Shown here: piece after piece, positions 13,106-52,356 of the stretch | How positions within the stretch are numbered: the first letter of the stretch is position 1 | Layout of the letters: every line of letters begins with the position of its first letter | Assembly (NCBI GenBank): GCA_000934665.2 | Contig: JYFJ02002671.1 | Location: forward strand, 1-52,869 | Reading direction: 5' to 3' | Source: Catajapyx aquilonaris | Lineage: Eukaryota | Length of the DNA stretch: 52,869 bases | The notes under the pieces: model-generated | Seen by the model: the letters and a program-made list of their open reading frames with translations, nothing else | The model's database searches: none | Told to the model about the DNA's origin: nothing | Translations under genes and position numbers: made by a program

Positions 13106-13108
13106 TTT

Positions 13109-22047: not shown

Positions 22048-22641
22048 AGCTGCCTAATGTTCGGCCAGGACAGTCCAGGACTGATGCAAATATAAGTCTT
22101 CAAGCTATACTGTCAATACGTGTATTGTATGCGACTGGACGTTTGTCTTACTTGGGAGTGTCCCACATATAGTGGTATTGGATGTGGGATATTGAATTTT
22201 GTTGCGCAATCGTAATGAAAAGTCCGTCAACTCCTATTATATGTGGGAGAGTCAGCATAGGGCCTCATATATCCAGGTTTGCCACCATAATTTTGAAGCA
22301 AAGTTCAAAATAGTTATTAAGCCAATTTGCACGACGATTGCGGAACGATTGTTGTCACTAAAACGATAATTAGTAACACTCCCAAGTGTCAACTCAGTTG
22401 GTATAAATCTATTCATTCCGCCCATCGCAGCAGACCACTCAAATATTAATTTTTCTCTGATGTCAATGAGAAACATCCATGACCGTGTTGCAGTGCGTGA
22501 AATTACTGGGGACAGACCATCATATCAATAATTTTATTATGAACGTCACTACTTCAAATCGTCAAGGCTGTGCCAGTGAGCGTTTAAGGCATTGCAGTCG
22601 AACTCCATTTCACTTGGGGCTGTTCATTCGAAGTGTTAACA

Positions 22642-24732
22642 ATGTTCGGATTTAAAATTCGTCTGGTTTTTGTGCTCGCCACTTTATTCACTCTTAATTT
22701 AAATGTTAATTATTGTTACGTGACTGTGACTCACGGGAACTCTGCTGATGATTACGTATCGGAAGCTGTTTGGCATCTGCTCAAGGACGGTAGCCAAGTG
22801 GAAGCTGAGTGTCCCCTGGCCCTGACCCATGACCTCGGGTGGAGTTGGCCGGGTCACCTCCAGGTCATGGTGTCCAATATGTCCAGGGCAGGGAGGCCCG
22901 TGTTGCTGGCCAGATCCACTGGTTCTCCTCTGGAGAGATGGGACTGCTCATCGGGGGGTGATCCCGAGGGTGATCCTGCTGTAATGTTCCAACCATCTCG
23001 ACAGTACAAGTGTCTGGTAAACCTGGTGACCACTTGCAGCCAGAACTACGAGGAGGCCATGGAGGAGCTGCTGGATCCAGAGGAAGGAGTAGTGACTTTG
23101 AAGAAGAACAAGGACTTGTTCATTATCTGGATAAGAGACGAGCCAGAGAAGCGGGAAAATATTTTGCAAAAACCGGCGTCCAATCTGAAGTATAAAGTTG
23201 GCATCACGGTCATAAACAATCGTACGGTAACATTGTCGTCTGTTTGTTTTTTCTGCGACGGAGGTGATCCTGTCATCGAATATGTCCAGGTTAACTCAAC
23301 CTCACTGTTGCAAAACACTCTCGGAACAGTGCTTCTCAAGGACAGTGCCGATGATTTTCATGGGAAAGTCTTGCACACACTGTACCACAGAAACGTGACT
23401 CACATGTCATGCGATCCATTAAATGCGGACCTTATCTTCATCTTAGGTTGCTATGTTGGAGAGGCGCTCCATTTTGAATGGACTGTAGGTTATTTTGATC
23501 AAGAGGAAGTGACCAGAGACATGAGTAAGGCTGTAGGAATTCTAGAGGATATCAGAGAGGGAAGCATAGCTTTTATGCTAACGGTTCCAGTTATTGACAT
23601 CTTGAACAGAGTATTTGACATGATAACGCCTCATTACTCAGATCGTATGACGTTCCTTGCTCGCAAACCAAAAGTGATCGACTCCCCGTTAGTGATAGTT
23701 TATCCCTATGAACTCATCCCGTGGTGCTGTTTCTTAATTTCTTTGATAGTTTACGGCTGGTTCCTTTTCCAATTGTCCAAGCAGCAGGGTCAGAGCAATT
23801 CATTTTTGTCCAAATTCAATTCTGTTTTGGGAAGTATTCAGTATATGTCACAGGCGGTACTTGACCAGTGCTTTGAGGCCAACTCTGGAATAATATTAAG
23901 GTCCTCATTTCAGATCGCTCTCCTCTTCTGGTATTACTTTAGTATAGTCGTAGAAACAGGTTATGAAGCTAAACTTTTTCAAATTCTTACCCATCCTCGT
24001 AAAGAGGAGATACCTCATTCAATCGAGGAATTATTAAAATCTGAATACATCATAAATATGTTAAATTCGATGTTTCAGTTGATGAATGCAGGGGACGGAG
24101 ACCTAACCGAAACATTGCCTAGATTCTTCGAAAAACTACGACTTGTAGAACCAGCCGAATGTGTGCGTACAATATTGAAAGAAGACAGAGTCTGCGTGGC
24201 AGACTCTGTCTGGCTGAGAAACACTATGCTGAATGAATTGCTTTTGAGCGACGGATCACTACCGGCGTTTATATCCGACGATTCCCTGGTGACATTCCAC
24301 TTCTCAATGGCATTCGGCAAGGACAACCTCTATTCGGCCAATTTCGACTATTGGGTGCAGGTCTTCAACAGCTTTGGTATTGGCTTGAAGAGTTATCGGT
24401 TTGAGGAACTCACTAAAATGCGGAGGATGGCCAGAATGGCAGGTGGAAGAAATAAAGCAAAAGGCAACGAGGACGAGGAAGAAAAAGTGGTATTTGGCAT
24501 CAAGAAATTTCAAGGGGCCTTTTGCATTCTGCTGGGAGGTGTTACATTGTCACTTGTCGCGTTCTTAAAGGAGATATTGTTTCCCAAACTACGTAATATT
24601 TTCACTCATCGCAATAGCACTGTGAATGTGCCTAAACGCATCAAGTATACCCCACCACAGGGATGCCAAATGCAAGTGCACTCGGAATCTTCAGAAAATT
24701 GTGAAGGAGAAACCTATTGTTATTTACCATAG
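22642..24732 (+). CDS. Divergent ionotropic receptor (variant iGluR), intronless, IR-1
   Basis: Signal peptide; PYELIPW + M1; pore loop QAVLDQ; M3 FWYYFSIVVETGYEAKLFQILT (SYTANL equivalent); S2 region; M4 FQGAFCILLGG...FLKE. Confidence 0.85.
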   Translation: MFGFKIRLVFVLATLFTLNLNVNYCYVTVTHGNSADDYVSEAVWHLLKDGSQVEAECPLALTHDLGWSWPGHLQVMVSNMSRAGRPVLLARSTGSPLERWDCSSGGDPEGDPAVMFQPSRQYKCLVNLVTTCSQNYEEAMEELLDPEEGVVTLKKNKDLFIIWIRDEPEKRENILQKPASNLKYKVGITVINNRTVTLSSVCFFCDGGDPVIEYVQVNSTSLLQNTLGTVLLKDSADDFHGKVLHTLYHRNVTHMSCDPLNADLIFILGCYVGEALHFEWTVGYFDQEEVTRDMSKAVGILEDIREGSIAFMLTVPVIDILNRVFDMITPHYSDRMTFLARKPKVIDSPLVIVYPYELIPWCCFLISLIVYGWFLFQLSKQQGQSNSFLSKFNSVLGSIQYMSQAVLDQCFEANSGIILRSSFQIALLFWYYFSIVVETGYEAKLFQILTHPRKEEIPHSIEELLKSEYIINMLNSMFQLMNAGDGDLTETLPRFFEKLRLVEPAECVRTILKEDRVCVADSVWLRNTMLNELLLSDGSLPAFISDDSLVTFHFSMAFGKDNLYSANFDYWVQVFNSFGIGLKSYRFEELTKMRRMARMAGGRNKAKGNEDEEEKVVFGIKKFQGAFCILLGGVTLSLVAFLKEILFPKLRNIFTHRNSTVNVPKRIKYTPPQGCQMQVHSESSENCEGETYCYLP

Positions 24733-25311
24733 TGTTTGGAATCTAACTTATTTAGGAAAATCAACTTACGCACGCATTGTTTACTACACACAGTCACTAA
24801 AAGTATTGTAAAAAAGATAATAAGTAGCCATTTAATAAAATTATAAGTCAGCCCTCAGTTCATTTCATTTATCTGAGCTCTTTCTTGTATGTCGAAAACG
24901 TGTCAATACAAAATGAGTTATCACTCCCACTGAGCCATTATTACGAATTATTACGTCATATTCGTATACCCGGTACCTGCAAAAGGTGTAGTTATTCGAG
25001 ACTTCCAGTGTCCATCATTACTCAGTCAATGTCGTGACCACGAGGCCTGGCTTATACCTGGCAGGTGGTCAGCCAGCTCTGAAGTACAGTATGTTGGTCC
25101 TCATTTTGCAATCTCTCGTCGTTTCGCATCGCATTTCACACTAATGTTTCCCACCCACCATATGGCGTAGATCTATCGCATCGATTGGAAGTTGCAACCA
25201 AGTGTTCATTGCATACCGAAATCACTTAAAGAGATGGTTTCCTTAGGTGGGAAACGTCGTAACAGAATATTTTATTGCCGCCTTACGACACAGGCTGAGT
25301 CTTGCCTCTTC

Positions 25312-25375
25312 ACTTATTAATGGGATAATGATTGATATTAATAATTAATATCGAATCATTATCCCATTAATAAGT
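25312..25375. repeat. 64-bp AT-rich near-perfect palindrome
   Basis: ACTTATTAATGGGATAATGATTGATATTAAT-A-ATTAATATCGAATCATTATCCCATTAATAAGT. Confidence 0.85.
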
Positions 25376-25604
25376 AATAAGTGATAATTATTTTTGCTGC
25401 GTTTTACAGTTGTGATGCGGAACACATCAGCGTAGAAATTATTCATTTAGTCGCATTTAGTAATGAGGAAGCCAGAATATGTGTGTGCTAAGTGCGTAAA
25501 ATTGTATATTGAGCCAAGTAGGTCAGAATTATTGTGATATTGAATTCCTTAGTGTCAGGAAAATACTCACAGGAGAGTAACGTTATTTTCAAGTGAGTCG
25601 CAAA

Positions 25605-27566
25605 ATGAATCTGATGTCATTATTCACAGTGTTGACAGTTTATCTTCATTTGACCCAATGTGACCTGTCGATTACTGAAAACCACTCGCTGGAAGAACTA
25701 GTAACACAGCTGATGTGGAACTTCCTCAAAGACGGCGAATTGTTGGGCACGGAATGTCCCCTGGCCGTGACCCATGACCTCGGGTGGGGTTGGCCTAGAA
25801 ACCTGGAGATCTTAGTGTCCAACATGTCTCTGGCAGGGAGGCCCGTGTTGCTGGCCAAATCGACTAGTTCTCAACATAGCAGATGGGACTGCTCAGAGTC
25901 GAGTTATCCCAAGAGTGATCCCACACTGTACCAACCTACTCACAATTTCAAGTGCTTGGTCAATCTGTTGACCACTTGCAGCCAGAACTACGAGGATGCC
26001 ATGGAAGAGCTGCTGGATCCGGAGGAAGGAGTGGTCAAGGCCAAGAAGAACAAGGATAAATTTGTGATTTGGATCAGGGACAAACCTGAAGATTTTCTGC
26101 TGGAGAAACCGGCGTCCGATCTGAAGTATAAAGTTGGCGTCACTGCCATCGACAGACGCACGGCAGAGTTATCCTCTGTGTGCTTCTTTTGCGACGAAGG
26201 AGAACCTGTCACTGAACTGTTCGTCACTAATTCAACTACATTGCCAATCAGTCTTGGAACCATGCTCCTGAAGGACAGAACCGATGATTTTCATGGAAAA
26301 CATTTGCACACAAACTCTTACATTAACTTCACTTCCACGCAATGCAATCCGCATGAGTCGATAATTTTCATTTCAGTTTGCTTCGTAGGCGAGGCTCTCA
26401 ATTTTAAATGGACGGCCGCTCATATCAATCTAGACGAACTCTTCAGTGATGTGGGTAAAGGTCTTGGATATCTAGACGATATCAGAAAGGGAAAGATATC
26501 GTTTATAATGACTGTTCCTCTCATTGAAATTGTTACTGCCTTGTTTGATGTAATAACACCTCATAATCAAGGCCGACTAACCTTCGCAGCACGCAAGCCT
26601 AACACAATCAACACCCCTCTAATGATCATCTATCCTTATGAATTCATCCCGTGGTGTTGCTTCTTCATTTCTCTGCTTCTTTATGGCTGGTTCATTTTTC
26701 ATTTGTCCAAACGTCAGCTGCGAAGGAACATACTTTTGTCCAAATTTCATTCAGTATTTGGAAGTTTGCAATATTTGGCGCGGGCTGTACTTGACCAAAG
26801 TTTTGAAGCCAATACTGGAGGTCAGCTAATGTCGTCGTTTCAGATAGCCCTCGTCTTCTGGTATTACTTTGTTATAGTCGTGGAAACAGGGTACGAAGCG
26901 AAACTGTTCGAAATTATGACCCATCCTCCTACGGAGAAAATACCTGAAACTTTTTCGGAACTATACAATTCCAATTACAAAATCAATGTCGATTATGGGC
27001 TTCATCAGATCCTGATAGCAGCAGAGGCAACTGAACTAAACGAGAACATTCCTTCTTTCTTTGAAAAATTACGAATTGTGGAAACGGCCGAGTGTGTGAG
27101 CACAATGATTGCCGAAGACAGGGTGTGCTTGGGAGAAGCAAATTGGCTGAAGGATGCCACAATGGACTACTTGCTCTCTGCTGGTGGTGGCACATCCACC
27201 ACGTTCGTATCGGAGGATTCTCTGGTCACCTTTTACAATTCAATGGGGTTCGCCAAAGAGAGAATTTACACTGACAACTTTGATTATTGGATCCAAATCT
27301 TCAACAGCATTGGTCTCAGCGTAAAGAGCGATCGTTTCATTGAATTCACTAAACTGTGGAGACTTGCAAGAATGGCGGATGGTAACGGCCGAGAAGACGA
27401 GGAAGACCAAGTGGTTTTTACGCTGGAGAAACTTCAAGGAGCGTTTTGCGTATTGCTCGGCGGAATTGCATTGTCACTTCTAGTCTTCTTGAAAGAAACT
27501 CTGCTCAGGGGTTGTTTCCCCCGGCATAATTGTTGTTCTGGACAAAATGCAAATAGTCTAGGTTAA
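25605..27566 (+). CDS. Divergent ionotropic receptor, intronless, IR-2 (tandem paralogue of IR-1)
   Basis: Colinear with IR-1: ECPLAVTHDLGW, VCFFCD, PYEFIPWCC, ETGYEAKL, LQGAFCVLLGG. Confidence 0.85.
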   Translation: MNLMSLFTVLTVYLHLTQCDLSITENHSLEELVTQLMWNFLKDGELLGTECPLAVTHDLGWGWPRNLEILVSNMSLAGRPVLLAKSTSSQHSRWDCSESSYPKSDPTLYQPTHNFKCLVNLLTTCSQNYEDAMEELLDPEEGVVKAKKNKDKFVIWIRDKPEDFLLEKPASDLKYKVGVTAIDRRTAELSSVCFFCDEGEPVTELFVTNSTTLPISLGTMLLKDRTDDFHGKHLHTNSYINFTSTQCNPHESIIFISVCFVGEALNFKWTAAHINLDELFSDVGKGLGYLDDIRKGKISFIMTVPLIEIVTALFDVITPHNQGRLTFAARKPNTINTPLMIIYPYEFIPWCCFFISLLLYGWFIFHLSKRQLRRNILLSKFHSVFGSLQYLARAVLDQSFEANTGGQLMSSFQIALVFWYYFVIVVETGYEAKLFEIMTHPPTEKIPETFSELYNSNYKINVDYGLHQILIAAEATELNENIPSFFEKLRIVETAECVSTMIAEDRVCLGEANWLKDATMDYLLSAGGGTSTTFVSEDSLVTFYNSMGFAKERIYTDNFDYWIQIFNSIGLSVKSDRFIEFTKLWRLARMADGNGREDEEDQVVFTLEKLQGAFCVLLGGIALSLLVFLKETLLRGCFPRHNCCSGQNANSLG

Positions 27567-28246
27567 TTATTTAACCGCCAATTAAGGTGCTTGGATTATC
27601 GCACAATTATTCCGATAAGTCCACTTGCGCGGTTGGCCATCTTGGATTTCTATTTTGTGCCGGGCACAATTTGTGAAAAGTTCGGTACTTTGGAATAATT
27701 CTAAAGGTTATTTTGATTTTGTGCTCCATAATCGTGCTTTTCATGTGTTTTTTTGTGCTCGAAAATTATCCCAGTGGAAACAGGCCTTTTGCGACTGTCG
27801 CTGACTTTTACCATGACGACGTACTTGTCGATTTAATTCTTTGTGTTTTGTTGTCAAGGTATAGTAGCCCAGATATTGTTCATGAATCAGTCTGATGAAT
27901 CGTTAGTGTTCAGATTGGTTCCAGCAGTGGATGAATTCCGGACTTATGTATTGCTTAATCACTTAGTAGTACTATGAGGAAAAGTCGCGTCTGAAACATA
28001 CTGCTGCTTTTGCGACGACGTCTTTTTTGCGGCTAAAGAGGGAATGAGAATTTATTACTGGTGACTTGGCACTCCAGGTGAGATTTTTGGCTATATTTCG
28101 ATGGTTGAACAACAGATAAATAATTAATGTGCCAGAAATTAGGAAATTGGCGCATCTTATTCATGACTGTTTCACTTTGAAGATCACACTTGGTGGTGAA
28201 GAATTTCTGGTGACATTGTGACTCTTTACGCGTCATAATATCAACC

Positions 28247-29126
28247 ATGTCGTTGGAGGTGACTGTCAAGAAGGAGGTGGACGAAGAAGGGCAAGGGGAC
28301 TGCAGCATTACCACCGAGGAGACGTGGAAGTTGGCTCTGAAGCAGGAGAATCCATCGTTATTTGATGAGGATTCAACAGCTGCTTTTTTTGAGGGGATCA
28401 CTGGTGAAGGTACGATAAAGGAGGAGACAGTTGAAGAAGAGATCACTGCACCAGATGCTTCTGATGATGAAGATGACCCGTTGGCACACACTTCAGAAAT
28501 GACCAATGAGGTAGGACAGCAATGGACACAAATGGGTGAAATTATTATACAAAATTATTGGCTTTCAGTTGACCCAAACGACACTCGATGTTGGACGCTC
28601 AAATGATGGAAGCAATGGTCGTATTCAGTCATTTGCTTGCCAACTGTGCGAGAGAAGGTACTTCGTGGCATCCGATTTGAAGTCCCACATCATGACTCAT
28701 GTGGGCCATGGGTTATTGGTTTGTCCGGTGTGCGAAAAGAAGTTTAAAACGCGTCCTCATTTGAAGAAGCACGTTGTCGTTCACACGGAAGAGAAGCAGT
28801 TTGTTTGTCAAGTGTGCCAGAGGCAGTTTTGGCACTTATCTGCAATGAAAACTCACGTCGCTACTCACTTGGAAGAATTCTTTTGCCCAGTGTGCCAGGC
28901 AATGTTTAGGTCTGCGAATAAGTTGAATGAGCACAAAAATATCCATTCAAAAGCAAGGCCGTTTGCATGCCAAGTGTGCCATAAAACGTTTAGTCGTTCA
29001 AGTTACCGCAATGTTCACATGGTGATTCACTCTTGTCAAATGTGCCAGTGGAAATTCAGGCGATCACGTGAACTGAAGGTGCACTGGCGGTACACGAGGA
29101 ACGGAAATCATGCCACATTTGCCTGA
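28247..29126 (+). CDS. C2H2 zinc-finger protein ZF-1 (3' end degenerate)
   Basis: Exons 28247-28510 (acidic) and 28569-29126 (CxxC...HxxxH fingers). Relative to its paralogues it has a 1-nt deletion at ~29085 and a downstream TAA. Confidence 0.8.
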
Positions 29127-29733
29127 AACCCGTTATTGCTTCAAAATTTGAAATGCACATTCAGGCTCACAAGGAAGAGGAGATACATTTTTGCAGACAT
29201 TGTCAATAAAAGTTTTCTTGCACAAGGACCTTGAGAATGCACACATCAATTTGTGCGCCAGTCTTTGAGATAAGAAGTTTCGAAGTTATAGTACAACTGA
29301 AAAGACACACCAGTAATGGTCGCCAAAAACCTTCTGTATTGATGTGTGTCTCTCTCTTTTTTTTTACTTTTAAGGAGTTGTCATATTGAATGCATCCACT
29401 ATTTGGAGGTGTATAATTTATTGTGGTGATCCTTTGTGAATCTATTATTCATGTTATATCAATCACTTTACAATAAAGCATGTGTTGAATACTATGAAAC
29501 CCTGCAGCAATCCAAATTTGTTACAACAGAGACGATGGAAACTGGGCAGTTCGAATTTGGTTAATTATTTTACCATGCAACGGGCCTGTTGATTCAGGCT
29601 TTGTTGTCTAGGTAGTGGCTTTGGGCATTGTTTAAGTCTGGCCGTGAGTCTGACGAAATGTCAGTGGTCAAATAACATTGGTGCAAATCGGTGTGGTGGA
29701 GGAATTATCTGGTGACATTCTGACTCTTGAACG

Positions 29734-30528
29734 ATGGAGGTGGCTGTCAAACAGGAGGTGGACGAAGAAGAAAAAGGAGACTGCAGCAGTACCACCGAGG
29801 AGACATGGGAGTTGGCTCTGAAGCAGGAGGATCCATCGCTATTTGATGAGGATCCAGCAGCTGCTTTTGAGTGGCTCGTTGGTATGAAGAAGGGCATTGC
29901 CCCTGATGCTTCAGAAAGGAACAATGAGGTAAGCCAGCAATACACACCAAATTATCTGAAAAGGCACATTCAACACCGAGTAATTTATTCTTATTAGGTG
30001 ACCCAAAATGCACCTGATGTTGGAAGCGAAACGGATGGAAACAATGGTCACATTGAGGAACCTGGTGGACTGAAGTCATTTTCTTGTCCGGTGTGCCAGA
30101 CAAGTTTTGAGTCGGAAAATCATTTGAACGAGCACAAAGTTATCCACATCACAGAAGAGAGGACCATTGCCTGCCAAGTGTGCCAGAAAACGTTTCGTCG
30201 TAAAAATTACCTCAGTACCCACATGGCAATTCACTCAGACATAAAGCCGTATCCTTGTCAAAAGTGTGAGAGGAAATTCAGGAGATCAAGTCAACTGAAA
30301 GTGCACATGGCTGTACACGACGTACGGATACCTTGCTACATTTGCATGAAGCCGGTTTTTGCATCGAAATTTGAAAGACACGTTCAGTCTCACTCGAAAG
30401 AGGAGATACATTTCTGCAGACTCTGTCAAAAAAGGTTCCCTTGCGCAAGGAGTTTGACCGAGCACATGATGACCCACGCAGCAGTTTGTGTGTCAATCAC
30501 GATGCCATTTTATTACAAGTTCCGATAA
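29734..30528 (+). CDS. C2H2 zinc-finger protein ZF-2
   Basis: Exons 29734-29928 and 29998-30528 with a phase-0 intron; five C2H2-type fingers. Confidence 0.88.
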
Positions 30529-31012
30529 GAAAGTTTCCAAGTTGGTGCAACTGAAAAGACACTATTTTTACTCGTAACTACATAACCATCAGTGGTGGTC
30601 TTCTGAAATTGGTGTTTACTCTGATTAGTGTCCCACTATTATTTTTGTTACATGTTTCTCTGTAAGAAGACATTTTACCTTAATTGATGTGAATCTATTT
30701 TACTTTTGAATAGTTGTCATTGACTGCATCCAGGAGATTTGTAATTATTGTGATCCTCTGTGAATAATCTACAGTACTATTCATATGTTATGACACTCAC
30801 TTTACAATAAACTGTTCAATACCAAAAACACAACAAGTTTGTTGCCTCTATACGATGGAATTGGTGTTTTGTTGTCTAGGTAGTGGCTTTGGGCATTGTT
30901 TAAGTCTGACGAAACGTCAGTGTTCAAATAATTGGTTCAAATCGGTGTGGTGGAGGAATTATCTGGTGACATTCTGACTCTTGACGCGTCATAATCTCAA
31001 CCATCCAGGACC

Positions 31013-32086
31013 ATGTCGTTGGAGGTGACTGTCAAGCAGGAGGTGGGCGAAGAAGGACAAGGGGACTGCAGCATTACCACCGAGGAGACATGGAAGTTGG
31101 CTCTGAAGCAGGAGGATCCATCGCTATTTGATGAGGATGCAACAGCTGCTTTTTTTGAGGGGCTCATTGGTGAAGGTACGATAAAGAAGGAGGCAGTTGA
31201 AGAAGAGATCACTGCACCAGATGATGAAGATGGCCCATTGCCAGTCACTTCAGAAGTGACCAATCAGGTAGGACAGCAATGGACACAAAAATGATGACAT
31301 GATAACAAATGTATTGCATTTCAGGTGGCCCAAACGACACTCGATGTTGGAAGCGCAAATGGTCGCAATCGTCGCATTAGGATATTTCAGGGACGGAAGT
31401 TACTTCCTTGCCAATTGTGCGAGAAATGGTACATCGCGGCATCTGATTTGAAGGACCACATCGTCATGAACCATGTGAGCGGTGGGTCATTGGTTTGTCC
31501 GGTGTGCGCAAAAGAGTATAGTAACCACGCAAATATGAAGAGGCACATTGTGGTTCACACGGGAGAAAAGCAGTTTGCTTGTCAAGTTTGCCAGAAACGG
31601 TTTTGGATCCCATCTGCAGTGAGAGATCACATGGCCACTCACAGCAACGACTTTTCTTGCCCCGTATGCAAGAGAAGGTTTAGGTCGGCCATTCGTTTGA
31701 ATCAGCACAGCAACATCCACACAGAAGTGAGGCCGTTTGCTTGTCAAGTGTGTCTGAGGAAATTCAGGCGACCATGTGACCTGACTGTCCACATGCTGAA
31801 GGTACACGTAGAACGGAAATCTTGCCGGATTTGCCTGAAGACGTTCAGTGCATCGAAATTTGAAAGGCACATGCAGGCTCATGCGGAAGAGGAGATACAA
31901 TTTTGCAGACTTTGTCAAAGAAAGTTTTCTTGCGCAAGGAGTTTGAGAGAGCACATGATGACCCACACAGCAATGTGTGATCCGATTTATTGTGAGATAA
32001 CAAGTTTCGAAGTTCGAACCAACATTGAAAAGAGAGATGCTGGTACTCCTACTTCCATAACCAGTGATGGTCTTCCAAGTCCATGA
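31013..32086 (+). CDS. C2H2 zinc-finger protein ZF-3
   Basis: Exons 31013-31267 and 31325-32086; seven fingers, including an HTGEK linker. Confidence 0.88.
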
Positions 32087-36707: not shown

Positions 36708-36815
36708 CCAGTAGCGGCGACTTGTGAGGTCGGAATAGCGCTTAATGACATCCTTCTCTGCGGTGGCGATAGGAATGCACCCCACAAAAATCACGGTCGA
36801 TCAAAGATGGCCGAC
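36708..36815 (+). promoter_or_regulatory. Conserved ZF-family promoter/5' block with YY1/Pho-type motif
   Basis: CCAGTAGCGGCGACT...GAATAGCGCTTAAT...TCCTTCTCTG...GGAATGCACCCC...AAGATGGCCGAC recurs at ~45140-45256 and ~51480-51600, each upstream of a paralogous exon 1. Confidence 0.65.
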
Positions 36816-36992: not shown

Positions 36993-39900
36993 ATGTCACA
37001 GGAAGTGTGGATAAAGAAGGAAGAGGCGGAGGAAGATGAGGAGGAGGACATCACAGTGGATGAGGAGAGTTGGAGGCTGCGGGTGAAGGAGGAGACCCCT
37101 TCTTGCATCGATGATGGCTCCACACTCATGGAAGACACTCTCCGTGAGATCAAGAAGGAGGAAGAAGGGGAGGAAGAAATGGTGGTGGACAAGCCTAGGG
37201 TGGTTGAAGAGGAAGACGACCCTTTGGGTGTTAGTTCAGGAAGGATTAGTGGGGTATGTTATTCCGACATCTGCAAACCCTGCGCACTCTGCATTGACTT
37301 ACTATGTACCGGTAATTCACTTTTCAGCCAATGCAAGAGGAAAGTGACCAAGACAGAAACCAGAAGAATGAGATCACCAGACTTCCTGATAGAAGCAAGC
37401 GATTTGATTGCCAAGTGTGCCAGAAATCACTTGGTGCCAAAGGTGCTTTGAAACTTCACATGAGAATTCACTCTGAAGAGAAACCATACAGTAAGGAGAC
37501 ACTTATCTTATTCATATTAATGTGTGTAGTGAAAGTAGTGATGATTTTGGTGGCTGCAATGCATTGTTGGACGAACGTTGTTTACAATTTTGTCCCGGTT
37601 GGTCTTTCATCAAGGTTGCCAGAGCCTCATGTCGCTGAGTCACTTTCAGCAGGGTCACTTCGCGAAGTAGTCGGTAAAGAGTAGCACTGCAGCTAGTGAT
37701 AAGTTACAAGGGTTTTCGTCACTCCAGGTTGCCAAAGTCAATTTGCATGGGTAGGGTAGACTCCATAGTTTCACATTTTGTAGATAATGATGAGTCTGTA
37801 TAGATAGCACGAGTAGAAGGGGGTGGCCCACAACTGTGTGGATCAAAACCATCACTTTACAGTAATGGGCATACCCTGCCCATACCTGTATTTCGATGTC
37901 AATTTTAAAAATAGCTTTTTGAAATGCTTCTTGGAATGGAATTGTTGTAAGCGTAATGCAGGTATGCAACTATGCAACTTTTGATGGTACTCGACAGTTA
38001 TGGGCCACTGTGCCCATGGCTATAAATACCAGGGTGCTCATATAACTGTATTATTTATTCATTGTTCTGTTCAGAGATGCCGAAACGCAAGCCAAAATGT
38101 GTCGCCTCTAAGACCGCATTGCATGATGCCCTGGAAGAATTTGCAAATTCTGAGAAACCATCGTCACTACGAGCTCTGGCTAGAAAATATGGTGTCCCCC
38201 GTGCCACATTGCAGAGGAAGATAAAGGATCCAGATGTCCGAGACAGCTGCTCTGGTCCTCCACCAATTTTGACAGCAGAGGAAGAAAACCAGTTAAAAAG
38301 GTTAGCTGCTGTGTAGTAGTAAATTTCAAATGCAGGACCTTCTTTTTCTATTGCACAGGATTCTTTATGGAACCTGCTCATGACCTCATCTTTTAAAAGA
38401 ACTGTTGGCCTAACCCTGTCCTGCATGGGTTTACAATTTTGGGAAGAAAAAAAAATGAAGGACTTTTGCTCATGATGTAAGGATGTCATTTTTCACAATT
38501 TTGTTGTCAGTGACCCAATGACCTTGGAGGTATTAACTAATTAATTATTTAATTAATTAAATAAATAAAATAATTCTGACATCATAATTATGATTTTACA
38601 CATAGTTAGAAGAACACATGACACACCTGGACATGATATTTTGCCTTTACACATACATAATATGAAAACCATTGGAAGAGAGAGTGAAAGATTGGTGCAA
38701 ATGACTCGTTGACTTTTTCCGCCATTGTTTTTTAATTCACTTTAACATTCCCATTAAAGAAATTGCTTATATCCACTTTATATCGGAAAATCATCGGTAT
38801 TTCAAAGGAGACAGATATTCGCACCCCGGCAATAACAGGGGCACAAGTCCAAAAATGACGCTTTGGACTTATTACTAGAGCAGGGTCCATGACCGTGTGC
38901 ACATTCAGCAAGAAAAGGGGGTACACCTCGAAATGCAAAATTCCACCACTAAATGGGGCATATGTCTCTATTGCATTTCGAATCTGTTCCAGCATCAATA
39001 GGGGCACTTTTAGACTTATGCCCCTTTGAGCTGTGTTGTGTTCCATTCTTTCGACTTGTGCCCCCGGGCCGCTCAGTGCCCTAACAAGCTTGCATCCATG
39101 CGCGACCTGTACAGAAGGGAAGGACCGGAGAGAGGGGAAGTCCCCCAGTTAGCAGGAAGGAGGAATTAGGCACTGCATGCTGTATCTACAGGGTGATTCA
39201 TATAAAACTGACACATTTCTTTCTTTCTTTATTCGGATGGACATGCACATAATGGCCCCTTTTTAGTTTCGAATTAAGCGGGATCCTTGGGGGTTCCTTG
39301 TCAGTAGATTGCGCGGGTGTTCATAAGCGGTGTGATTGCCAGCTGTTTTGTGCCATTTTGTGGCAGTTGCTGTCAAGATGCAGGTTTGGTGCGCAATCTC
39401 CGCACAGAGAATAGTGGGACCAATTTTATTCCACAGGACTGTTAACACCGAAGAGTACCGACGCCTTTTCATGGAGTTTGTTGAGAAACTGGATGACGTC
39501 GAGCTGGGAAAAGGGTCAATGACTTCCATGGATTTGTTCGATTTATGGCATGTGGCACCGTCTTGTTGAAAATATCCTTTACCCAGCTCCCTGTCATCCA
39601 GTTGCTCAACAAACTCTATGAAAATGCATCGGCACTCTTCAGTGTTAACAGTCCTGTGGAATAAAATTGGTCCCACTATTCCCTGTGCGAAGATTGCGCA
39701 CCAAACCTGCATCTTGACAGCAACTGTCACAAAATGGCGAAAAACAGCTGGCAACACCGCAGTTATGAACACCCGCGCAATCTACTGACAAGGAACCATA
39801 TCTCCCAAGGATCCCGCTTAATTCGAAACTAAAAAGGGGCCATTATGTGCATGTCCATCCGAATAAAGAAGGAAAGAAAATAATGTGTCAGTTTTATATG

Positions 39901-42900
39901 AATCACCCTGTAGTAGAAGGCACTGCACAATAATGGTGGACCGTAACAGTAGATCCTTCAAGATCATGAAGCTAGCCCTGATGAATAGACCTAGGACTAC
40001 AACTGAAGGTGGAAGTGTAGGGGAAAGAGAGACAGAAGCTAGCAACAAGTGAGAACAATCATTGTCATAGCGCTTTCATACTCATTAATTTATGGATAAT
40101 GAATGATGATTATTAACAGGGACAACCCGATTTTGGGCACCTCAGCAACTTGTAGTGCGAATGCTATTCCCACAACGTCAGGCAGCATTGCATGTCACGA
40201 CGATGAGGTAAGTTGGTGCATTTTAGTGTAGTGAACCTTCTCGGATCATGTTTCATGATCATTAGCATGATTATGTTGCATTTACGGCAGGACGTCACAG
40301 ATTCCCTAAGTGACATAAGCAACAGTGGCAGTGACAAATCATGGGAGCCACCAAGAAATCAGGAACCCTCAGATGATGAGATGACCTATGCTGAAGTTCC
40401 AGACGTTTCGCATGAAGAGGTGCTGTGTGTGACTTCGGAGGATTCTCCAGGTGAATATTGTCACTGAATATTAGTGAGGGTTATGGGAACATTAATATTC
40501 CTGGATCATAATTACTGAATGCAAATAATCCTACCTGTAGCTCTTACAAGAAAGCGCAAGAGCCACCCACATAAATGGAAGATTGCTGCTGCAAAGAAAA
40601 AGAGGAACCAAGGACATGAATATACTAACATTCACGGAAATATTGTGCAAGGTAGAAACGTCAAGCCAGGCTGTGGTGAAAAGTGCCGTTTGAAATGCAG
40701 TATGCAAGTTACTCCTGGGCAACGTGAAGAGATCCATCGTAAATTTTGGAACCTAGGGGAAATCACAAGGCAACGGGAGTTTGTAAGTAGGAGTATCACA
40801 AAAGCTCAACCCCGCTATCGTTACGCCAAGATTGGCAGTACACGTGCCTTCAATGCACAGTTTCACTTAGAATGCGGGGATGGGAAGGTACGAGTATGCA
40901 AATTATTTTTCAAAACCACTCTGGACATCACCGACAAAATGATCAGAACCACCATGAAAAAGACTGAAGATGGGTTCGTGGCACGCGACATGAGAGGAAA
41001 ACATGGGAACCAGAAGACAGTGCCTCCAATCATTACTGAAGGTATTAGAAAGCACATAGAATCTTTCCCCCGCATCGAGTCCCATTATCTCCGTGAACAA
41101 ACAAGCCGTGAGTACCTCGATGGTTCTCTAAGCATTGCAGAGATGCACAGACTGTATGTGGAGGAATGCAAGAAGAAGGGGGCTCCATACGGCAACATAA
41201 CCAAGTATGAACGAATTTTCAGTGGGGAATACAATATCGGCTTTTTCGAACCAAAAAGGGACCAATGTTCGAATTGTGTATTGTTTCAAAACATGGGAGA
41301 CTCTGCTACAGAAGAACAAAAATTACAACATGAAAAGCATCTGAAAGAGAAAGACGCTTGTAGGAGGGAGAAAGATGAAGACAAAGCAGCTGCAGAAGAG
41401 GGCCGCTGTAAAGTGGCCGTAATGGACCTGCAGGCAGTCCTGCCAACACCTACTGGAAATGCATCCATTCTCTACTACAAGAGAAAATTATCGACCTACA
41501 ATTTCACCATATATGACATGGGAGAATCAAGAGGCTACTGTTACGTCTGGAACGAGACTATCGCCAAAAGCGGGGCAAATGAGATAGGCAGCTGCCTACT
41601 GCATTTCCTAGAGACTTACTGCCAAACAAAGGATGTCATCCTGTATGCGGACAATTGCGCAGGACAGAATAAAAACAAGTTCATCTTGTCCCTCCTCATT
41701 TATGCAGTGAGCAAGCTGGACATTCCGTCCATAACAATTAAATATCTCATTGTTGGACACACACAGAATGAGGGCGACATGATGCACTCTGCAGTTGAGA
41801 AGCAAAAGAGGAGGAGCCTCAAGTCAGGACCTATCTACATCCCTGCCCAATGGATTCCTATCATCCAGTGTGCTAAAAAGACTGGATCCCCCTTCATCGT
41901 CCATGAGCTGGAGACAAGGAATGTCCTTGACCTAAAGGCCTTGTCACAAGCCGTGGGGTCGAACTTCATACGCGATGAAGACGGTGGATCCGTGAGGTGG
42001 ACGGACATAAAAAGCCTGCGGGTAGAAAAGGGCCAGCCTTTCTTGATAAAGTTCAGAACAAGCTATGAGCAGCAGTCTGATAACATTTTGCCCGTGCGGA
42101 AGCGCAGTCGCGGACGCCCTTCACATTTGCCTGATCCTGGTCCAGCCCTTACTTGTCCACCAGCAATTCCAAAGGCAAAGCTTGATGACCTACTGTCTCT
42201 GTGTCATTGCAATGCTATTCCAAGCCAGTACCACTCTTTTTATGAGTTGCTGCGTGTAGATGAAAGTATGGTAAAGGATGATGATGATTATTATTATGTT
42301 TAGCATTTTCGTTTTTGTTAGCATTGTTCACAGTGTGGTTACGTATGTAGAATTCAAGTCTTGAAAATAATAACCTGGAAAACAATGATGCTTATGGTGA
42401 TTTTATTTGCATTATAATTGGCATAATTATGCCTCCTTTCCTATGCTCTCATCGTGTCATTTCCTCACAGGTTATCAGCAGCAAAAGGGGCACATTCCAA
42501 AGTGTTATACAACAATGCCAATAAATCCTCTAAACAATCAAGTTACACAAGAGAGTCGAAATGAATATGAATAACAATGACAGGCGTCCCCAGTGCCGAA
42601 GGTTATTCGAATGCTGCATCAATACCTGATTTATGATAACACAATACAACTTTCAAAGTGCTCTCCTGTGAAATTGACTTTTTGGACTTGTGCCCCTGTT
42701 ATTGCCGGGGTGCGATGTATAGGCCTACTTCAAAAATGTAAATTCATGAGGAACCCCATGTAATCTTTTACTACTTCAACGCAAGCTGTACATGTGCTTA
42801 CGTAATTATAATTTACAGCTGGATAAATACTCTCGCTCGAAAAGGATTTCCCAGAAAAAAGGAAGACATACAGTGCAGCGCCCAGGAATTTCTGAACCGA

Positions 42901-44264
42901 AACCCCAGGAAAAATCCATTCAAAGACAACAAACCTGGAGAGGGATGGTACAGGGTTAGTGTGTTTTAATCTGAAATGACATTGCAAATGTAATACTTCA
43001 TGAGCGTACAGTTATTTAATCGTTTCAGGCTTTTATGAGGCGACACCCAGATCTGTCTGTAAGAGTTCCTGAAGCAGTTACATCAGAAAGTGCTGGAGTC
43101 ATCGAAGCCGATATTAGGAAATGGTTTGCTGAAATTCATGCATACCTTGTGAGCGGGGAAGTTGAGGATACGAAGATACTGGAGGATCCAACAAGAGTTT
43201 TCAATGGAGATGAAACCACCTTCCAGCTGTGCCCTGTCACCAGCAAGGTGGTTGTTCCTCGTGGTTTGCAGAATGTATGTGACGTTCAGAAGGGCTTAAC
43301 CAAAGATACAGTCACAGTCATGTTCGCGTTTTCAGCCAGTGGATTAAGGTGTCCTCCTATGGTGGTCTACCCTTACAAGAGAATTCCTCACAAGATTGCA
43401 TGCCAAGTCCCAGGCAGTTGGGGGGTTGGACGTAGTGACAATGGATGGATGACCGCAGAAGTCTTCCGGGAATATATTGCTAATGTTTTCCACCCTTTTC
43501 TCATTCAAAACGGTATTAGGTTACCAGTTATATTGTTTGTTGATGGTCATAAGAGTCACCTGACTTATCAGCTTAGCCAATTGTGCAATGAGTTGCAAAT
43601 AGTGTTGATATCGCTTTATCCCAATGCAACAGGCATTCTGCAACCAGCAGATGTGGCAGCATTTAAACCTGTTAAGGTAGGATGGGAAAAGATTTCAAGG
43701 GATTGGAAAGAGCAACATCAGCACGAGATTCTCGACAAGGGGAATATGATACAAGTTCTTAAAAGGGTCTTTGATGAATATGTGAATGAAAATACACTCA
43801 CCCATGGGTTCAGAGCTTGTGGCTTACACCCGTGGAATCCTGATGCTATCGATTACTCAGAGTGTTTGGGAAAATGCAATGAGCCTGCCAACACTAGACA
43901 TGACGAAGAGGGTGAAAAGATCATGAAGTATCGTGAATTCTGTGCCATTGTTGGAGAAGAAAAAATTAAGGAATTTGAAGGCATTCAAAATATTCTTGCC
44001 GAAAAAGCAGGACAGGATTTCTGTGCTCTTTTCCGCCTGTGGGAAGCATACCAGACGCACAATCCACAAAACCAGCCAGATAGGCCTACAACAACAGTCA
44101 CTACTTCACTGACGTCTGCTGACCATACTGCAGGCGGTCCATCTCGTAAAGTAAATGCTCAGAGTGAGTGTGAAACCAGATCTGCGCATGAACATGCATT
44201 CGAAACTATGTGCATTGATACAGTGACACCAAAAGAGAATGAGTCTCATGGGGGTAGGTCATGA
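36993..44264 (+). CDS. Chimeric zinc-finger / pogo-family transposase (psq-HTH, CENP-B-type HTH, DDE_1), predicted 673 aa
   Basis: Exons 36993-37253, 37328-37490, 38075-38300, 42819-42954, 43029-44264. All introns are GT-AG with matching phases 0/1/2/0 and there are no internal stops (2022 nt). Domains: acidic exon, one C2H2 finger (CQVCQK...HMRIH), SLRALARKYGVPRATLQRK, WINTLARKGFP...PGEGWYRAFMRRHP, FNGDET / FVDGH / QPAD (DD35D). Confidence 0.72.
39189..39910. mobile_element. Tc1/mariner-derived foldback element, TA TSD
   Basis: TA|CAGGGTGATTCATATAAAACTGACACATT ... AATGTGTCAGTTTTATATGAATCACCCTG|TA. The ~325-bp inverted arms carry transposase fragments VWCAIS...IVGP.LF; YFQQDGATCH lies in the loop. 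Confidence 0.9.
39933..42303 (+). CDS. Sola-like DDD transposase, predicted 708 aa
   Basis: Exons 39933-40048, 40120-40207, 40291-40450, 40541-42303 (phases 2/0/1, all consistent). Motifs DLQAVLPTP, YYKRKL, GANEIGSCL, YADNCAGQNKN, GHTQNEGDMMHS. Confidence 0.82.
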
Positions 44265-44356
44265 TCCGAAGTAGCCTAGTAATGTACAAGGAGAAGGAAC
44301 AGAAGAAATGTCAAGAAAGGGAAGAGAAAGAGGTCCGGAAAAGAAAGAGGTTGGCC

Positions 44357-45960
44357 ATAGGAAATATTTTCTTAACATACACACAGAATTTATTGTTTCC
44401 TTGTTTGTAATGATCTCCACTGATGAGTACATGGGAGACAGATTAGAAATATGCAATGCAGATGTTATGTTGCCCATAGTGTATGTAGCTCTGTTCTTCC
44501 CATTTGGAATAGCAAATATCCATATAAGAATATCCCAATATATTCTGCTATTTTTTCAATGGTAACTAACCACAAGATGCGAAAGTAATATATATCTTAC
44601 CCATGGGCTTCTCTCAGTGCTGCAACTAAGCCTAAGAGACTGTGAGAGTCACAATTAATTGTAATGACATATTGAGGTAATTACTCGATTCAGAATTCAC
44701 TTGTAGTTTGATAAAGTTATTTGTTTTATTATACAGTGAAAATGTTCGAAGAGCTGGTTACACTTGTTAAGGGAAAATCAAATTTAATGGCCCATTAACT
44801 ATTGGCACCCCACACAGAAGACTAATATTGCAAGTTGATAATGAAAACATGTGGCAAACATTTTGTACTTTCATATATTTTGAAATTGTCACTTTTATTT
44901 CTTTGAAACATCCAAAACCCTAAGAGGTTGATGCATTTTTGTAAAAAAAAAAAAAAAAAAAGAGTACCGTATGTGCTAATTTGGTCCATGTATTTGTCCG
45001 ATAAAATACCTCGATGTCAAAATGTTCCTCTGCTGTCTCATTTACTGTCATTCCAGGCAAATAGAATCATTCACATCAGCTTTATTTTGCGCGATGAACT
45101 GAATGATGGATAGAGAGCTATTAGCGAATAGCAGCATCGCCAGTAGCGGCGACTGGTTAAGCAAGAATAGCGCTTAATCTCGTCCTTCTCTGTGGATGGC
45201 GGTGGGAATGCACCCCAACAAAAAAAATGGAAAGGGGAAATTCCAAGATGGCCGACGACAATAGTCTCTCGTGAAGACTGGAGAGCTTTCCAGGGAATGG
45301 CACCGATCTCATTCCCTGGATTTGGGTCAGTCGCCTGGAGAATCACCCTTCAACCAGGTACAATACGTACATTTGAGACGAATTTCCCCCCTCGCTGCAA
45401 TTGTCCTTCTTTGCCCATTTTGTCTTCTCTTTGTTTCCTTATTTTTATTCCCTTTTTTACGACCTTCCCCACAACCCCTTCAAAGCAGGGGTTGCGAACA
45501 AGGTAAACATTTTGTCCATAGACGAGTCATACTGTACCATTCGTTATGAGTGGTACCCTTATTAGCTCTTGGTGGTAGGCCTACTGTTCATCTGCAGCTG
45601 GCATGGTTGGGTTGCTGGTTCACGTGATGATTACCTGACCTGCAGTTTTATTTGCAGGATAATGTCACTGGCAGTGAGGATAAAGAAGGAGGAAGTGAAG
45701 GAGGAAGAAGATGAGGACATCACAGTGGACGAGGAGACTTGGAGGCTGCGGTTGAAGGAGGAGACCCCTTCTTGCTTTGATGATGGCTCTGCGCTCATAG
45801 AAGACACTCTCCTTGAGATCAAGAAGGAGGAAATGGAGGAGGAGGAGGAAGAGATGGTGGTGGACACATCTGAGGTGGTCGATGATGAAGATGACCCTTT
45901 GGAAGTTGGTTCTGGAACAATCAGTGGGGTATGTGATATGCTGCAAATACAAAGTAATTT
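44357..45960. repeat. Duplicated ZF-gene unit (3' flank, promoter, exon 1)
   Basis: Aligns with ~50467-52290, apart from a replaced block at ~50598-51030; similarity continues past the MITE (46311-46375 vs ~52290-52355). Confidence 0.85.
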
Positions 45961-48900: not shown

Positions 48901-50254
48901 GATTTCTGCAATATTGATCTCGATGTAATATATTTTTGCAATCACACATTCATCCCTTTGAATCAGATGTTGTTGTTCTTTTTTTTTTCGAACTTTCAAA
49001 CCCTGCCGTCATCCACACTACATAATGGAAATTGATGTACTATTTTTCCCTTTTCAGGCAGTGCAAGAGAAAGGCGATGAAGTCTGTGTGGGGAAAGGAG
49101 TCCAGAAGAACAAGATCACTACACCTAATGATGGAAGCAAGCAATTTGATAGTCAAGTGTGCCAGAAGCCGCTCAGTACCAAAAAAACTTCGAAAATCCA
49201 CATGAGAATTCACTCAGAAAAGAACCCATTTACATGCAAGATGTGCCAGAAAAACTTTACCGATTCCTACTATTTGAAAATTCACATGCGGATTCATTCG
49301 GGAGAAAAACCATTTACATGTGAAGTGTGCCAGAAAAAGTTTATTAAGTCAGGAGATTTGACAACTCACATGCGAACTCATACAGGAGAAAAACCATTTA
49401 CTTGTGGGGTGTGCCAGAAAGATTTTTGTCAATCAAGTAATATGAAAAGACACATGTTTACTCATGCAGTAGATAAATCATCATTTACTTGTGAAGTGTG
49501 CCAGAAACAGTATACTGCAGCAGGTAGCTTGAAAGTTCACATGCGAATTCATACGGGAGATAAACCATTTACTTGTGAGGTGTGTCAGAAACCGTGTAGT
49601 ACATCTTATTCCTTGAAAGTTCACATGCAAATTCATTCAGGAGAAACACGATTTACATGTGAAGTGTGCCAGAAAATTTTTATTAATATATGCGATTTGA
49701 AAACTCACATGCGAACTCATACAGGAGAAAAACCATTTACTTGTGAGGTGTGCCAGAAAGATTTTTCACAATCAAGTAATTTGAAAAGACATATGTTTAC
49801 TCATGCAGTAGATAAGCCATCATTTACTTGTGAAGTGTGCCAGAAACAGTTTACTCAAGCAGGTAGCTTGAAAGTTCACATGCGAATTCATACCGGAGAT
49901 ACACCTTTTACTTGTGAGGTGTGTCAGAAACCGTGTATTACATCTTATTCCTTGAAAGTTCACATGCAAATTCATTCAGAAGATACACCATTTACATGTG
50001 AAGTGTGCCAGAAAATTTTTATTAATTCAGGCGATTTGAAAACTCACATGCGAACACATACAGGAGAAAAACCATTTACTTGTGAGGTGTGCCAGAAAGA
50101 TTTTTCACAATCAAGTAATTTGAAAAGACATATGTTTACTCATGCAGTAGATAAACCATCATTTACTTGTGAAGTGTGCCAGAAACAGTATACTGCATTA
50201 GGTAGCTTGAAAGTTCACATGCGAATTCATACAGGAGATAAACCATATATTTGA
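45662..50254 (+). CDS. C2H2 zinc-finger array protein ZF-5, ~487 aa
   Basis: Exons 45662-45928 and 49058-50254 (phase 0). Twelve complete fingers with TGEKP-type linkers plus one degenerate finger; a further frameshifted finger follows the stop. Confidence 0.85.
45967..46308. mobile_element. Palindromic MITE with TA TSD (Tc1/mariner/pogo-type CAGT termini)
   Basis: TA|CAGTGCTGGACA...TGTCCAGCACTG|TA with ~150-bp imperfect arms. The empty site CAGTA|TGGTCATG is present in the paralogous intron at ~52285-52297. Confidence 0.92.
47201..47248. mobile_element. 48-bp mini-MITE with 9-bp TSD (MULE-like)
   Basis: AGTACAACC direct repeats (47192-47200, 47249-47257) flank CAAAGAGTTCTGCTAT...ATAGCAGAACTTTTT. 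Confidence 0.7.
49313..50245 (+). repeat. 339-bp (4-finger) higher-order tandem repeat, ~2.75 copies
   Basis: TTTACATGTGAAGTGTGCCAGAAAA recurs at 49313, 49652 and 49991. Confidence 0.92.
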
Positions 50255-51987
50255 GGTGTGCCAGAAAAAGTTTTCTAAATCTTCTAACCTGAATGTTCAC
50301 ATGGGAATTCATAGCTAGGATAAAAACCATACCAATCATATGTGAATTCACAGCCAGGAGACCACTTAGCTGCAAATATTCCCAGAAGCCGAAAAATGTC
50401 AAAGTACAATAACAAAATGTTACCATCACAGTAGGTTTTCTTGAAAAAAGTATGGAGTACTAGGTGATAGGAAATAGTATTTCCTTAGCATACACACTGA
50501 ATTTATTATCTGCTTGCTTGTAATGATCTCCTTTGATGAGTACAAGGGAGACAGATTAGAAATATGCAATGCAGATGTTATGTTGCCCATAGTGTATACT
50601 AGCAGGTTACCTGGCATTGCCCGTGTATGTTTGGGTGCTAGTAAAGGTAGGGGTACATAATCATATCTTAGGAAGTTTGTTTGTAAAGTTTGTGTTCCAT
50701 CCATTCAAAACTCGATATGCCTTAAAACAGGCCTTATAAGTTACAATTAGCCAATGTTTGTCACTCTCTGCGATAGATTACCTCCTTCAGTTATAGCATA
50801 GTCGAAGCAGATATGCTGATTGGATGTGTAAAAAGACGGATGCGGATAGAGTTGGCCCAGGAAAATTCTGTGCAGCCATGTGTTATTTCCCTCCCAGAAT
50901 TTTTGACCCCTTGACCCCCCAAGCCCCTTTCACACCCCCACCTTTTTCCATATGTTTGCCCTGAAGAACTTTAGAAATGCACGCACAGATGTCTGGTGGG
51001 AAAGTTTGTTTTCAGCACTGTGAGTAGGAATTAATTACTCAATTTATAATTAACATGTAATTATTTGTGAAGATATTATTACAGTGAAAATGTTCAAATA
51101 GCTGGCTCCATTCATTGTTAAGGGAAAATCAAATTAAGGGGTCCATTAACCAATTGGCACCCCACACAGAAGACCAATAAATTGTAAGTTCTTATCAAAA
51201 CATGTGATTTTTTTTTTTGTTCTTTCCAATATATTTTGAAATTGTCACTATTATTTATTCTTTGAAACATGGACAACCCTAAAATGTTCATGCCTAATTT
51301 GAGTAAAGGGTCATGTGCTACTTTGGTCCATGTATTTGTCTGATAAAATACCTCGATGTCAAAATGTTCCTCTGCTGTCTCATTTACTGTCAGTCAAGGA
51401 AAGTAGGATCATGCGCGTCAGCTCTATTTTGCGCCATGAACTGAATGGTGGATAGAGCTATTAGCGAATAGCAGCATCGCCGGTAGCGGCGACTGGTTAA
51501 GCAAGAATAGCGCTTAATCTCGTCCTTCTCTGTGGGTGGCGATGGGAATGCACCCCAAGTAAAAAAAAAAATTGAAAGAGGAAATTCCAAGATGGCCGAC
51601 GGCTATTCTCAATTCGATTGTCTCTCGTGAAGACTGGAGGACTCTCCAGCGAATTGAACGGATCTCATTCACTGGATTTGGTTCAGTCGCCTGGAGAATC
51701 ACCCTTCAACCAGGTACAATACGTACATTTGACATGAATATCCCCCCCTCGCTACAATTTTCCTTCTTTGCCCATTTTGTCTTCTCTTTGTTTCCTTATT
51801 TTTATTCCATTTTCCCGGCCTTCCCCACAACCCTTGAAAACATACTGGCGACACAGGGGTTGCGAACAAGGTGAACATTTTGTCCTTCGAGTCGTACCAT
51901 TTGTTATTGTTCATCTGCAGCTGGCATGATTGGGCTGCTGCTGCTTCACGTGATGATTACCTGACCTGCAGTTTTATTTGCAGGATA

Positions 51988-52251
51988 ATGTCACTGGGAG
52001 TGAGGCTAAAGAAGGAGGAAGTGAAGGTGGAAGAAGATGAGGACATCACAGTGGACGAGGAGAGTTGGAGGCTGCGGTTGAAGGAGGAGATCCCTTCTTG
52101 CTTTGATGATGGTGCTGCGCTCATAGAAGACACTCTCCTTGAGATCAAGAAGGAGGAAGCGGAGGAGGAAGAAGAGATGGTGGTGGACATTTCAGGGGAG
52201 GTTGGAGAGGAAGATGACCCTTTGGAAGTTGGTTCTGGAACAATCAGTGGA
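51988..52251 (+). CDS. Exon 1 of a further ZF-family paralogue ZF-6 (partial)
   Basis: MSLGVRLKKEEVKVEEDEDITVDEESWRLRLKEE...DDPLEVGSGTISG followed by a GTATGT donor. The downstream exon is not in the window. Confidence 0.8.
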
Positions 52252-52356
52252 GTATGTAATATGCTGAAAATGCGATGTTATTCACAGTATGGTCATGGTC
52301 AGATTATATTTCATAAACAGTGTACTCTACTTTCATGAATGTCCATGTCTGAATTG

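Follow-up and report, generated by a model that had tools for sequence, protein, structure and literature searches.

A stranded pogo transposase gene in a disrupted zinc-finger paralogue of Catajapyx aquilonaris, a candidate host-transposase fusion

In a 52,869-nt stretch of the Catajapyx aquilonaris genome (contig JYFJ02002671.1; hereafter the window, in which all coordinates are given), a copy of a DD35D pogo transposon sits inside one member of a tandem family of C2H2 zinc-finger genes, at 36993-44264. An earlier note on this DNA had read the locus as a candidate new gene in which a host zinc-finger N-terminus is spliced in frame to the transposase. As such a fusion it is, judged from its sequence, a structurally good candidate, unproven. 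On balance we lean towards a plainer reading: a disrupted zinc-finger paralogue that carries a stranded, still-coding transposase gene with no established fusion function. Chimeric transcripts would be a possible, if somewhat doubtful, by-product of such a gene.

The anatomy of the locus is solid, and the earlier note described it correctly at the coordinates that it gave. Five exons, two from the host and three from the transposon (Table 1), join to 2022 nt, or 673 codons and a stop, with zero internal stops. Exon-end phases are 0, 1, 2 and 0, and all four introns are bounded by GT...AG, as had been claimed. A single open frame holds host and transposase domains across canonical splice sites; together with a transposon-supplied acceptor and immobility, both described below, this gives the locus the DNA-level traits of a fusion gene in the sense of Cosby et al. 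The domain searches reported below were Pfam scans of each exon by itself rather than of the joined 673-aa protein.

The host part belongs to the neighbouring zinc-finger family, in line with the paralogy proposed earlier. The protein encoded by the first exon is 72% identical to that of the paralogue at 45662 and 66% identical to that at 51988 (81% nucleotide identity to both 45636-45937 and 51962-52260), and the second exon matches its counterpart at 73% nucleotide identity. In the paralogue this second exon encodes 12-13 C2H2 fingers; in the pogo-carrying unit exon 1 and the first finger are present and the array of 12-13 is absent, leaving one canonical finger (C-x2-C-x12-H-x3-H) that scores 19.8 bits with zf-C2H2, under the cut-off for a lone finger. 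Two non-coding blocks of the family are also retained at this unit, as the earlier note had stated: an upstream block, whose role as a promoter is putative, and the 3' flank, which resumes after the transposon.

Several further observations concern this family. The exon 1 module matches no Pfam family and has no relatives among longer proteins or among 1.84 billion representatives, and the protein atlas returned nothing usable (best score 0.89). The 3' flank blocks at 44357-44484 and 50467-50597 are more alike (90%) than the coding exon 1 (81%), which may reflect a conserved element of the 3' untranslated region (UTR) or gene conversion. Neither AATAAA nor ATTAAA occurs in 44200-45000 or in the paralogue's 50200-51000, an uninformative result. 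In the first finger of the intact paralogue (49100-49230) Ser replaces the first zinc-binding Cys (F-D-S-Q-V-C); the pogo-carrying unit keeps the canonical Cys (37400-37487). A more distant member of the family, at 28214-32086, has an acidic N-terminal module with 41% amino-acid identity to exon 1, followed by three separate open reading frames (ORFs) with C2H2 fingers (28515-29126, 29998-30528 and 31298-32086).

The three downstream exons (exons 3-5 of the frame) encode the pogo part of 531 aa. The domains that the earlier note had recognised by eye are there: a psq-type helix-turn-helix (HTH), a Tc5-type HTH and a DDE_1 domain with the triad D181/D292/D328, 35 residues separating the second and third aspartates. 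The triad columns are invariant in the homologue alignment. With N-terminal HTH domains and a DDE_1 domain bearing D, D and D, the protein is a DD35D transposase of the pogo superfamily. Pfam profiles recover all three transposase domains: HTH_psq lies above its cut-off, DDE_1 scores 51.6 bits, and HTH_Tnp_Tc5 falls just short on exon 4 of the frame (21.3 bits against 22.2) because the domain is split over exons.

We compared this gene with 60 related loci from metagenome contigs (L001-L060). Across both internal junctions, 14 continuous homologues show no gap when aligned with the spliced pogo part, and the homologues begin M-P-K at the position aligned to the ATG at 38077. The site of the first internal intron (after residue 74) is interrupted in 15 loci, continuous in 8 and not spanned by 37; that of the second (after residue 120) is interrupted in 24, continuous in 11 and not spanned by 25. 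These interruptions, too, are bounded by GT...AG. Because related loci share both the positions and the GT...AG boundaries, the two transposase introns are native to the pogo lineage. By this comparison, exons 3-5, introns included, form the three-exon gene of the transposon itself and are not a product of host splicing, which corrects the earlier note. We also considered the introns as a sign of domestication, and rejected this because they are native to the lineage.

The first native intron is long (4518 nt) in this copy, consisting of 621 nt of intron and a nested DNA transposon of 3897 nt. Perfect 37-nt inverted repeats bound this element, and its 594-aa ORF (40519-42303), which is open, matches DUF7869 (50.9 bits); it looks young and possibly active. 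It contains in turn a foldback-like insert at 39186-39913, whose arms of 179, 76, 48 and 35 nt are 92-100% complementary and hold mirrored fragments of a mariner-like transposase ORF.

The relatives share 46-64% amino-acid identity with the pogo part and represent other pogo families. No protein above 59% identity was found by word-indexed protein search, and no locus above 64% by the search for related loci. The nearest named relatives in the protein search are all insect proteins. In a tree the protein sits by itself on a long branch (0.92; median 0.43), which carries no information on age or rate.

Both ends of the pogo copy are damaged. In the relatives, each outer end consists of TA and a 26-nt repeat, GGGTAAACCATACAGTTATTGGCCAC, with unrelated flanks outside; among the repeat copies inspected, 8 of 10 on the left and 10 of 13 on the right are outer ends and the remainder inner copies. 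In the window, host sequence stands in place of the left repeat's first 4 nt, and the repeat is not preceded by TA. The clipped repeat sits exactly where homology to the zinc-finger paralogue ends (37487/37488), and the heptamer AAACCAT (37481-37487) is common to the codons of the zinc-finger linker and to the pogo repeat, a microhomology of 7 nt. Since the repeat is clipped, the TA missing and the junction placed within this microhomology, the left junction between host and pogo is not a TA insertion; we infer a microhomology-mediated deletion or rearrangement between the finger linker and the transposon end. For the left end we also considered a canonical TA + CAGT terminus at 37489 and rejected it, as the repeat of the relatives starts 12 nt further out.

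The 5' region behind this end has kept the layout of the lineage. In the relatives a 14-nt core of the repeat recurs twice, in minus orientation ~365 nt in and in plus orientation ~535 nt in, the latter ~90 nt upstream of the ATG. Corresponding copies lie in the window at 37823-37836 (minus, 1 mismatch) and 37995-38008 (plus), with a spacing of 172 nt against 161-169 nt in the relatives, and a TATA-like box lies near 38022-38029. In relatives (for example 1060-1703 of L005 and 2797-6177 of L053) the plus-strand core copy of the 5' region has its own hairpin. The core is also found twice at the right end of relatives, 190 nt apart, giving a layout resembling that of inverted repeat/direct repeat (IR/DR) elements, together with a probable 5'-UTR intron.

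On the right, the outer repeat of the relatives lies ~1150-1190 nt past the codon aligned to residue 462. In the window the zinc-finger flank begins (~44351-44357) after only ~300 nt of further pogo DNA, so that by comparison with the relatives ~870 nt of the right end are missing. The earlier note had found no convincing pair of terminal inverted repeats (TIRs). There is indeed no inverted repeat pairing both pogo ends in the window, nor any right repeat, but a partial left repeat and two subterminal motif copies are present. TIRs at both ends and a TA duplication, the marks of a mobile pogo element, are thus lacking. The copy cannot transpose, because its right end is missing and its left repeat clipped, and on immobilisation the earlier note was right.

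Its claim of an intact ORF holds for the DNA-binding and catalytic core, which is open, but not for the C-terminus. Nearly every clade of the tree contains homologues with the C-terminal motif W-P-x-T-P-x-R-K-G-K-R ... P-F-V-x-T-S-x-x-W and a tail rich in K and E (46 of 121 homologues). In the window the motif is degenerate and frameshifted out: the protein ends T-P-K-E-N-E-S-H-G-G-R-S-stop, and the K/E-rich tail continues after the stop in another frame to ~44350. Some carriers of the motif (carriers include P0002, P0006 and P0036) add a Cys-rich, C1-like end (PF00130).

Table 1 Features of the interrupted zinc-finger unit and of the pogo copy within it
Feature	Position	Strand	Basis
Upstream block conserved in the zinc-finger family; putative promoter or non-coding 5' exon	36708-36790	+	83% identity to 45140-45224 and 51480-51557
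Host exon 1, acidic N-terminal module of 87 aa	36993-37253	+	Paralogy to units at 45662 and 51988
Host exon 2, linker and one canonical C2H2 finger; last 10 nt overlap the pogo terminal repeat	37328-37490	+	Match to 49046-49229
Clipped left terminal repeat, equal to positions 5-26 of the relatives' 26-nt repeat	37481-37502	+	18 of 26 positions match, 12 consecutive
Pogo 5' non-coding region (proposed intron 2 of the frame)	37489-38074	+	Alignment to relatives; motif copies, TATA-like box, acceptor
Pogo exon 1, HTH_psq, native ATG at 38077	38075-38300	+	Pfam 22.5 bits (cut-off 20.4)
Native pogo intron 1, enlarged by nested transposon	38301-42818	+	Position common to 15 of 23 spanning related loci
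Nested DNA transposon	38819-42715		Perfect 37-nt inverted repeats 38819-38855 and 42679-42715
Pogo exon 2, part of HTH_Tnp_Tc5	42819-42954	+	Pfam 21.3 bits; collinear with homologues
Native pogo intron 2, 74 nt	42955-43028	+	Position common to 24 of 35 spanning related loci; GT...AG in relatives
Pogo exon 3, DDE_1 (DD35D) and prematurely ending C-terminal region	43029-44264	+	Pfam 51.6 bits
Relic of the K/E-rich C-terminal tail in another frame; pogo DNA ends and zinc-finger flank is joined	44258-44356	+	Three-frame translation against homologue tails; alignment to paralogue
3' flank of the zinc-finger unit	44357-44484	+	90% identity to 50467-50597

The preferred reading, a disrupted paralogue with a stranded transposase gene, runs as follows. 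The interrupted unit, unit A of the tandem C2H2 family, has kept its upstream block, its acidic exon 1 and its first finger. Fingers 2-13, the stop codon and ~210 nt of 3' UTR (~1.24 kb in the paralogue) have been replaced by ~6.87 kb, representing one copy of an intron-bearing DD35D pogo transposon, whose first intron the nested 3.9-kb transposon entered later. On the left, the repeat minus its first 4 nt is joined to the linker of finger 1 through AAACCAT, presumably by deletion or rearrangement; on the right, the cut lies within the ancestral C-terminal tail, so that the right repeats and the pogo 3' UTR are lost. A transcript begun at the host promoter would run into the pogo element, where the GT in the clipped repeat and the pogo acceptor 2 nt before the ATG could join the two frames into the 673-aa chimera.

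The splice that would create this chimera is where host and transposon sequence meet. Its proposed donor, ACA/GTAAGG (the slash marks the exon end), has its GT at 37491-37492, positions 15-16 of the pogo terminal repeat; the counterpart of this site reads GTTATT in the relatives and GTTATG or GTTGTG in the inner copies of the window. The proposed acceptor, a 20-nt pyrimidine-rich tract and a CAG ending at 38074, lies in pogo DNA, 2 nt before the native ATG. In the relatives a perfect CAG/GTAAGT occurs ~300 nt into the 5' region, and a run of pyrimidines leads up to an AG ~17 nt ahead of the ATG; because of this donor and this AG, the acceptor in the window is probably the native acceptor of a pogo 5'-UTR intron. 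Such an acceptor, brought by the transposon and placed directly ahead of the transposase ORF, is a further mark of fusion genes in the sense of Cosby et al., here at the level of DNA sequence. Without splicing, read-through from the host frame would stop at 37685. An in-frame splice to the host exons, as put forward in the earlier note, is thus possible between a good donor and the best-ranked acceptor, but the element was not captured from an intron: pogo replaced ~1.2 kb of coding exon, from finger 2 through finger 13 and the stop codon into the first part of the 3' UTR. Whatever is said here of splicing, expression or function of the chimera, we infer.

Unlikely, in our judgement, is a selected host-transposase fusion, in which the zinc-finger promoter would drive a 673-aa protein (acidic module, finger, psq and Tc5 HTHs, DDE core) that would bind the CAGTTATKGGCCAC-type repeat motif as a regulator or a transposon repressor. 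A number of findings argue for it and weigh against a merely stranded gene. Host and transposase are linked by a donor and an acceptor of good quality in the same frame, and the acceptor lies immediately before the transposase ATG, as in 8 of 9 traced vertebrate fusions. Of the 60 AG sites in 37520-38320, none exceeds the acceptor in pyrimidine score and two equal it, one of them the AG 2 nt downstream. Among the differences of the outer repeat (n=4), two turn GTTATG into GTAAGG, both towards the donor consensus. The host promoter block is kept and the host exons are open, and the ratio of nonsynonymous to synonymous substitution rates (dN/dS) of exon 1 is 0.30 against each of the two paralogues, a pairwise value that integrates all the time since duplication and not the time since fusion.

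The state of the transposase points the same way. The element is immobile, yet its core ORF and the splice sites of its native introns are intact; the core remains open over 510 codons, whereas decay has reached what is specific to the transposon, namely both ends and the C-terminal motif. Among 77 columns with a conservation of at least 90%, this core departs from the homologues at 5 (6.5% against a median of 2.7%; rank 91 of 111). The repeat-motif copies of the window differ from one another at 8 of ~40 positions, compared with 0-3 in four relatives, and the relative with 3 differences has a fragmented ORF. This divergence hints at an age by which an unconstrained ORF should have broken. Both counts, of motif copies and of core columns, are small, and the relatives compared are other pogo families (46-64% amino-acid identity), so the differences between motif copies may be native to this pogo family rather than a signal of age.

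Other points speak against selection. Each end was truncated in a single event, for which a short time would be enough, and the catalytic triad is as intact as that of a young active copy. By chance, a donor and an acceptor would be expected to join in frame in about 1 case in 3. No database protein joins the N-terminal module to a transposase, in databases from which the species seems absent (best match of exon 5 of the frame 46-59%). A fuller version of the selected fusion, likewise unlikely, would make the locus a young invertebrate, probably arthropod, host-transposase fusion near its birth, with a microhomology deletion, two repeat substitutions that gave a strong donor, a native 5'-UTR acceptor, and a core kept open by selection as ends and C-terminal motif decayed.

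The stranded transposase gene could instead be expressed alone from the pogo 5' region, an account that we also hold to be unlikely. It would then serve as a trans-acting source for mobile relatives or miniature inverted-repeat transposable elements (MITEs), or as a stand-alone domesticated gene, with the zinc-finger exons a dead or truncated remnant. The native ATG, with the TATA-like box ~50 nt upstream at a position conserved in relatives, the retained acceptor of the relatives' probable 5'-UTR intron, and the intact DD35D triad and two DNA-binding domains are all consistent with such expression. Set against these, the window's counterpart of the native donor is weak (TGG/GTAGGG at 37751) and the conserved C-terminal motif is lost. 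Least probable by far is an assembly chimera mis-joined at 37488 and ~44355, since, although both junctions adjoin repeated sequence (zinc-finger linker, transposon end), the flanks on either side come from one zinc-finger unit and keep its order and orientation, unit-to-unit spacing continues normally and the window contains no N.

In tetrapods, new transcription factors are documented to have arisen by host-transposase fusion; to our knowledge, few such fusions have been described outside vertebrates. The earlier note cited SETMAR as precedent. POGZ and POGK, which it did not mention, are closer ones: both are described as chimeric pogo-derived genes, with zinc fingers and a KRAB domain, respectively, under a nonsynonymous-to-synonymous ratio (Ka/Ks) below 1 (PMC7386202). 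Both have, like our locus, a complete pogo transposase (HTH and DDE) C-terminal to a host N-terminal module, and POGZ retains the DDE triad (PMC7386202); they differ in being ancient, conserved and derived from the Passer family. The Catajapyx case is a single candidate locus with one finger, an unrelated acidic module and a pogo lineage nearest to insect elements, and orthology to POGZ or POGK is not implied.

KRABINER is a close precedent too. It shares with SETMAR and CSB-PGBD3 an origin by alternative splicing; the mariner behind it inserted into an intron, and the parental transcript is still made. Here, in contrast, the finger array of a coding exon has been replaced, which makes the parental product impossible, and the donor lies within the transposon's own clipped terminal repeat. 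With autonomous DD35D pogo elements of insects the copy shares domain order, the two intron positions, the M-P-K start, the repeat motif and the 5' subterminal layout; it differs from them by the loss of the first 4 nt of the left repeat, the TA duplication, the right end and the C-terminal motif. Passages from a keyword-level survey of literature on host-transposase fusion or capture and on domesticated pogo showed no arthropod zinc-finger-pogo fusion, which is no proof of absence.

If the fusion is real, its path of birth would be unusual, a coding exon having been replaced rather than an intron invaded, with a donor built from the pogo terminal repeat, a native acceptor reused and all intermediate scars still readable. 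If it is not, the locus is a warning that an open multi-exon frame through a transposase can arise simply from an element that carries an acceptor and introns of its own, given that one frame in three fits.

The rest of the window holds other genes and elements. An upstream ORF of 1075 aa has a weak SPAG17-like lead in the protein atlas, with no Pfam family and no match among longer proteins. Five tandem single-ORF chemoreceptor-like genes (two were tested, both 7tm_7) and two Lig_chan ORFs, resembling ionotropic receptors, occupy 4110-22053 (minus) and 22588-27566 (plus), a gene content that hints at an arthropod-like host. Coding sequence of long terminal repeat (LTR) retrotransposons, with long ORFs still open, is found at 3-2306 and 7907-12918 (minus); protease, RVT_1 and RNase H domains were recognised in the single ORF tested, and integrase- and gag-like ORFs lie alongside.

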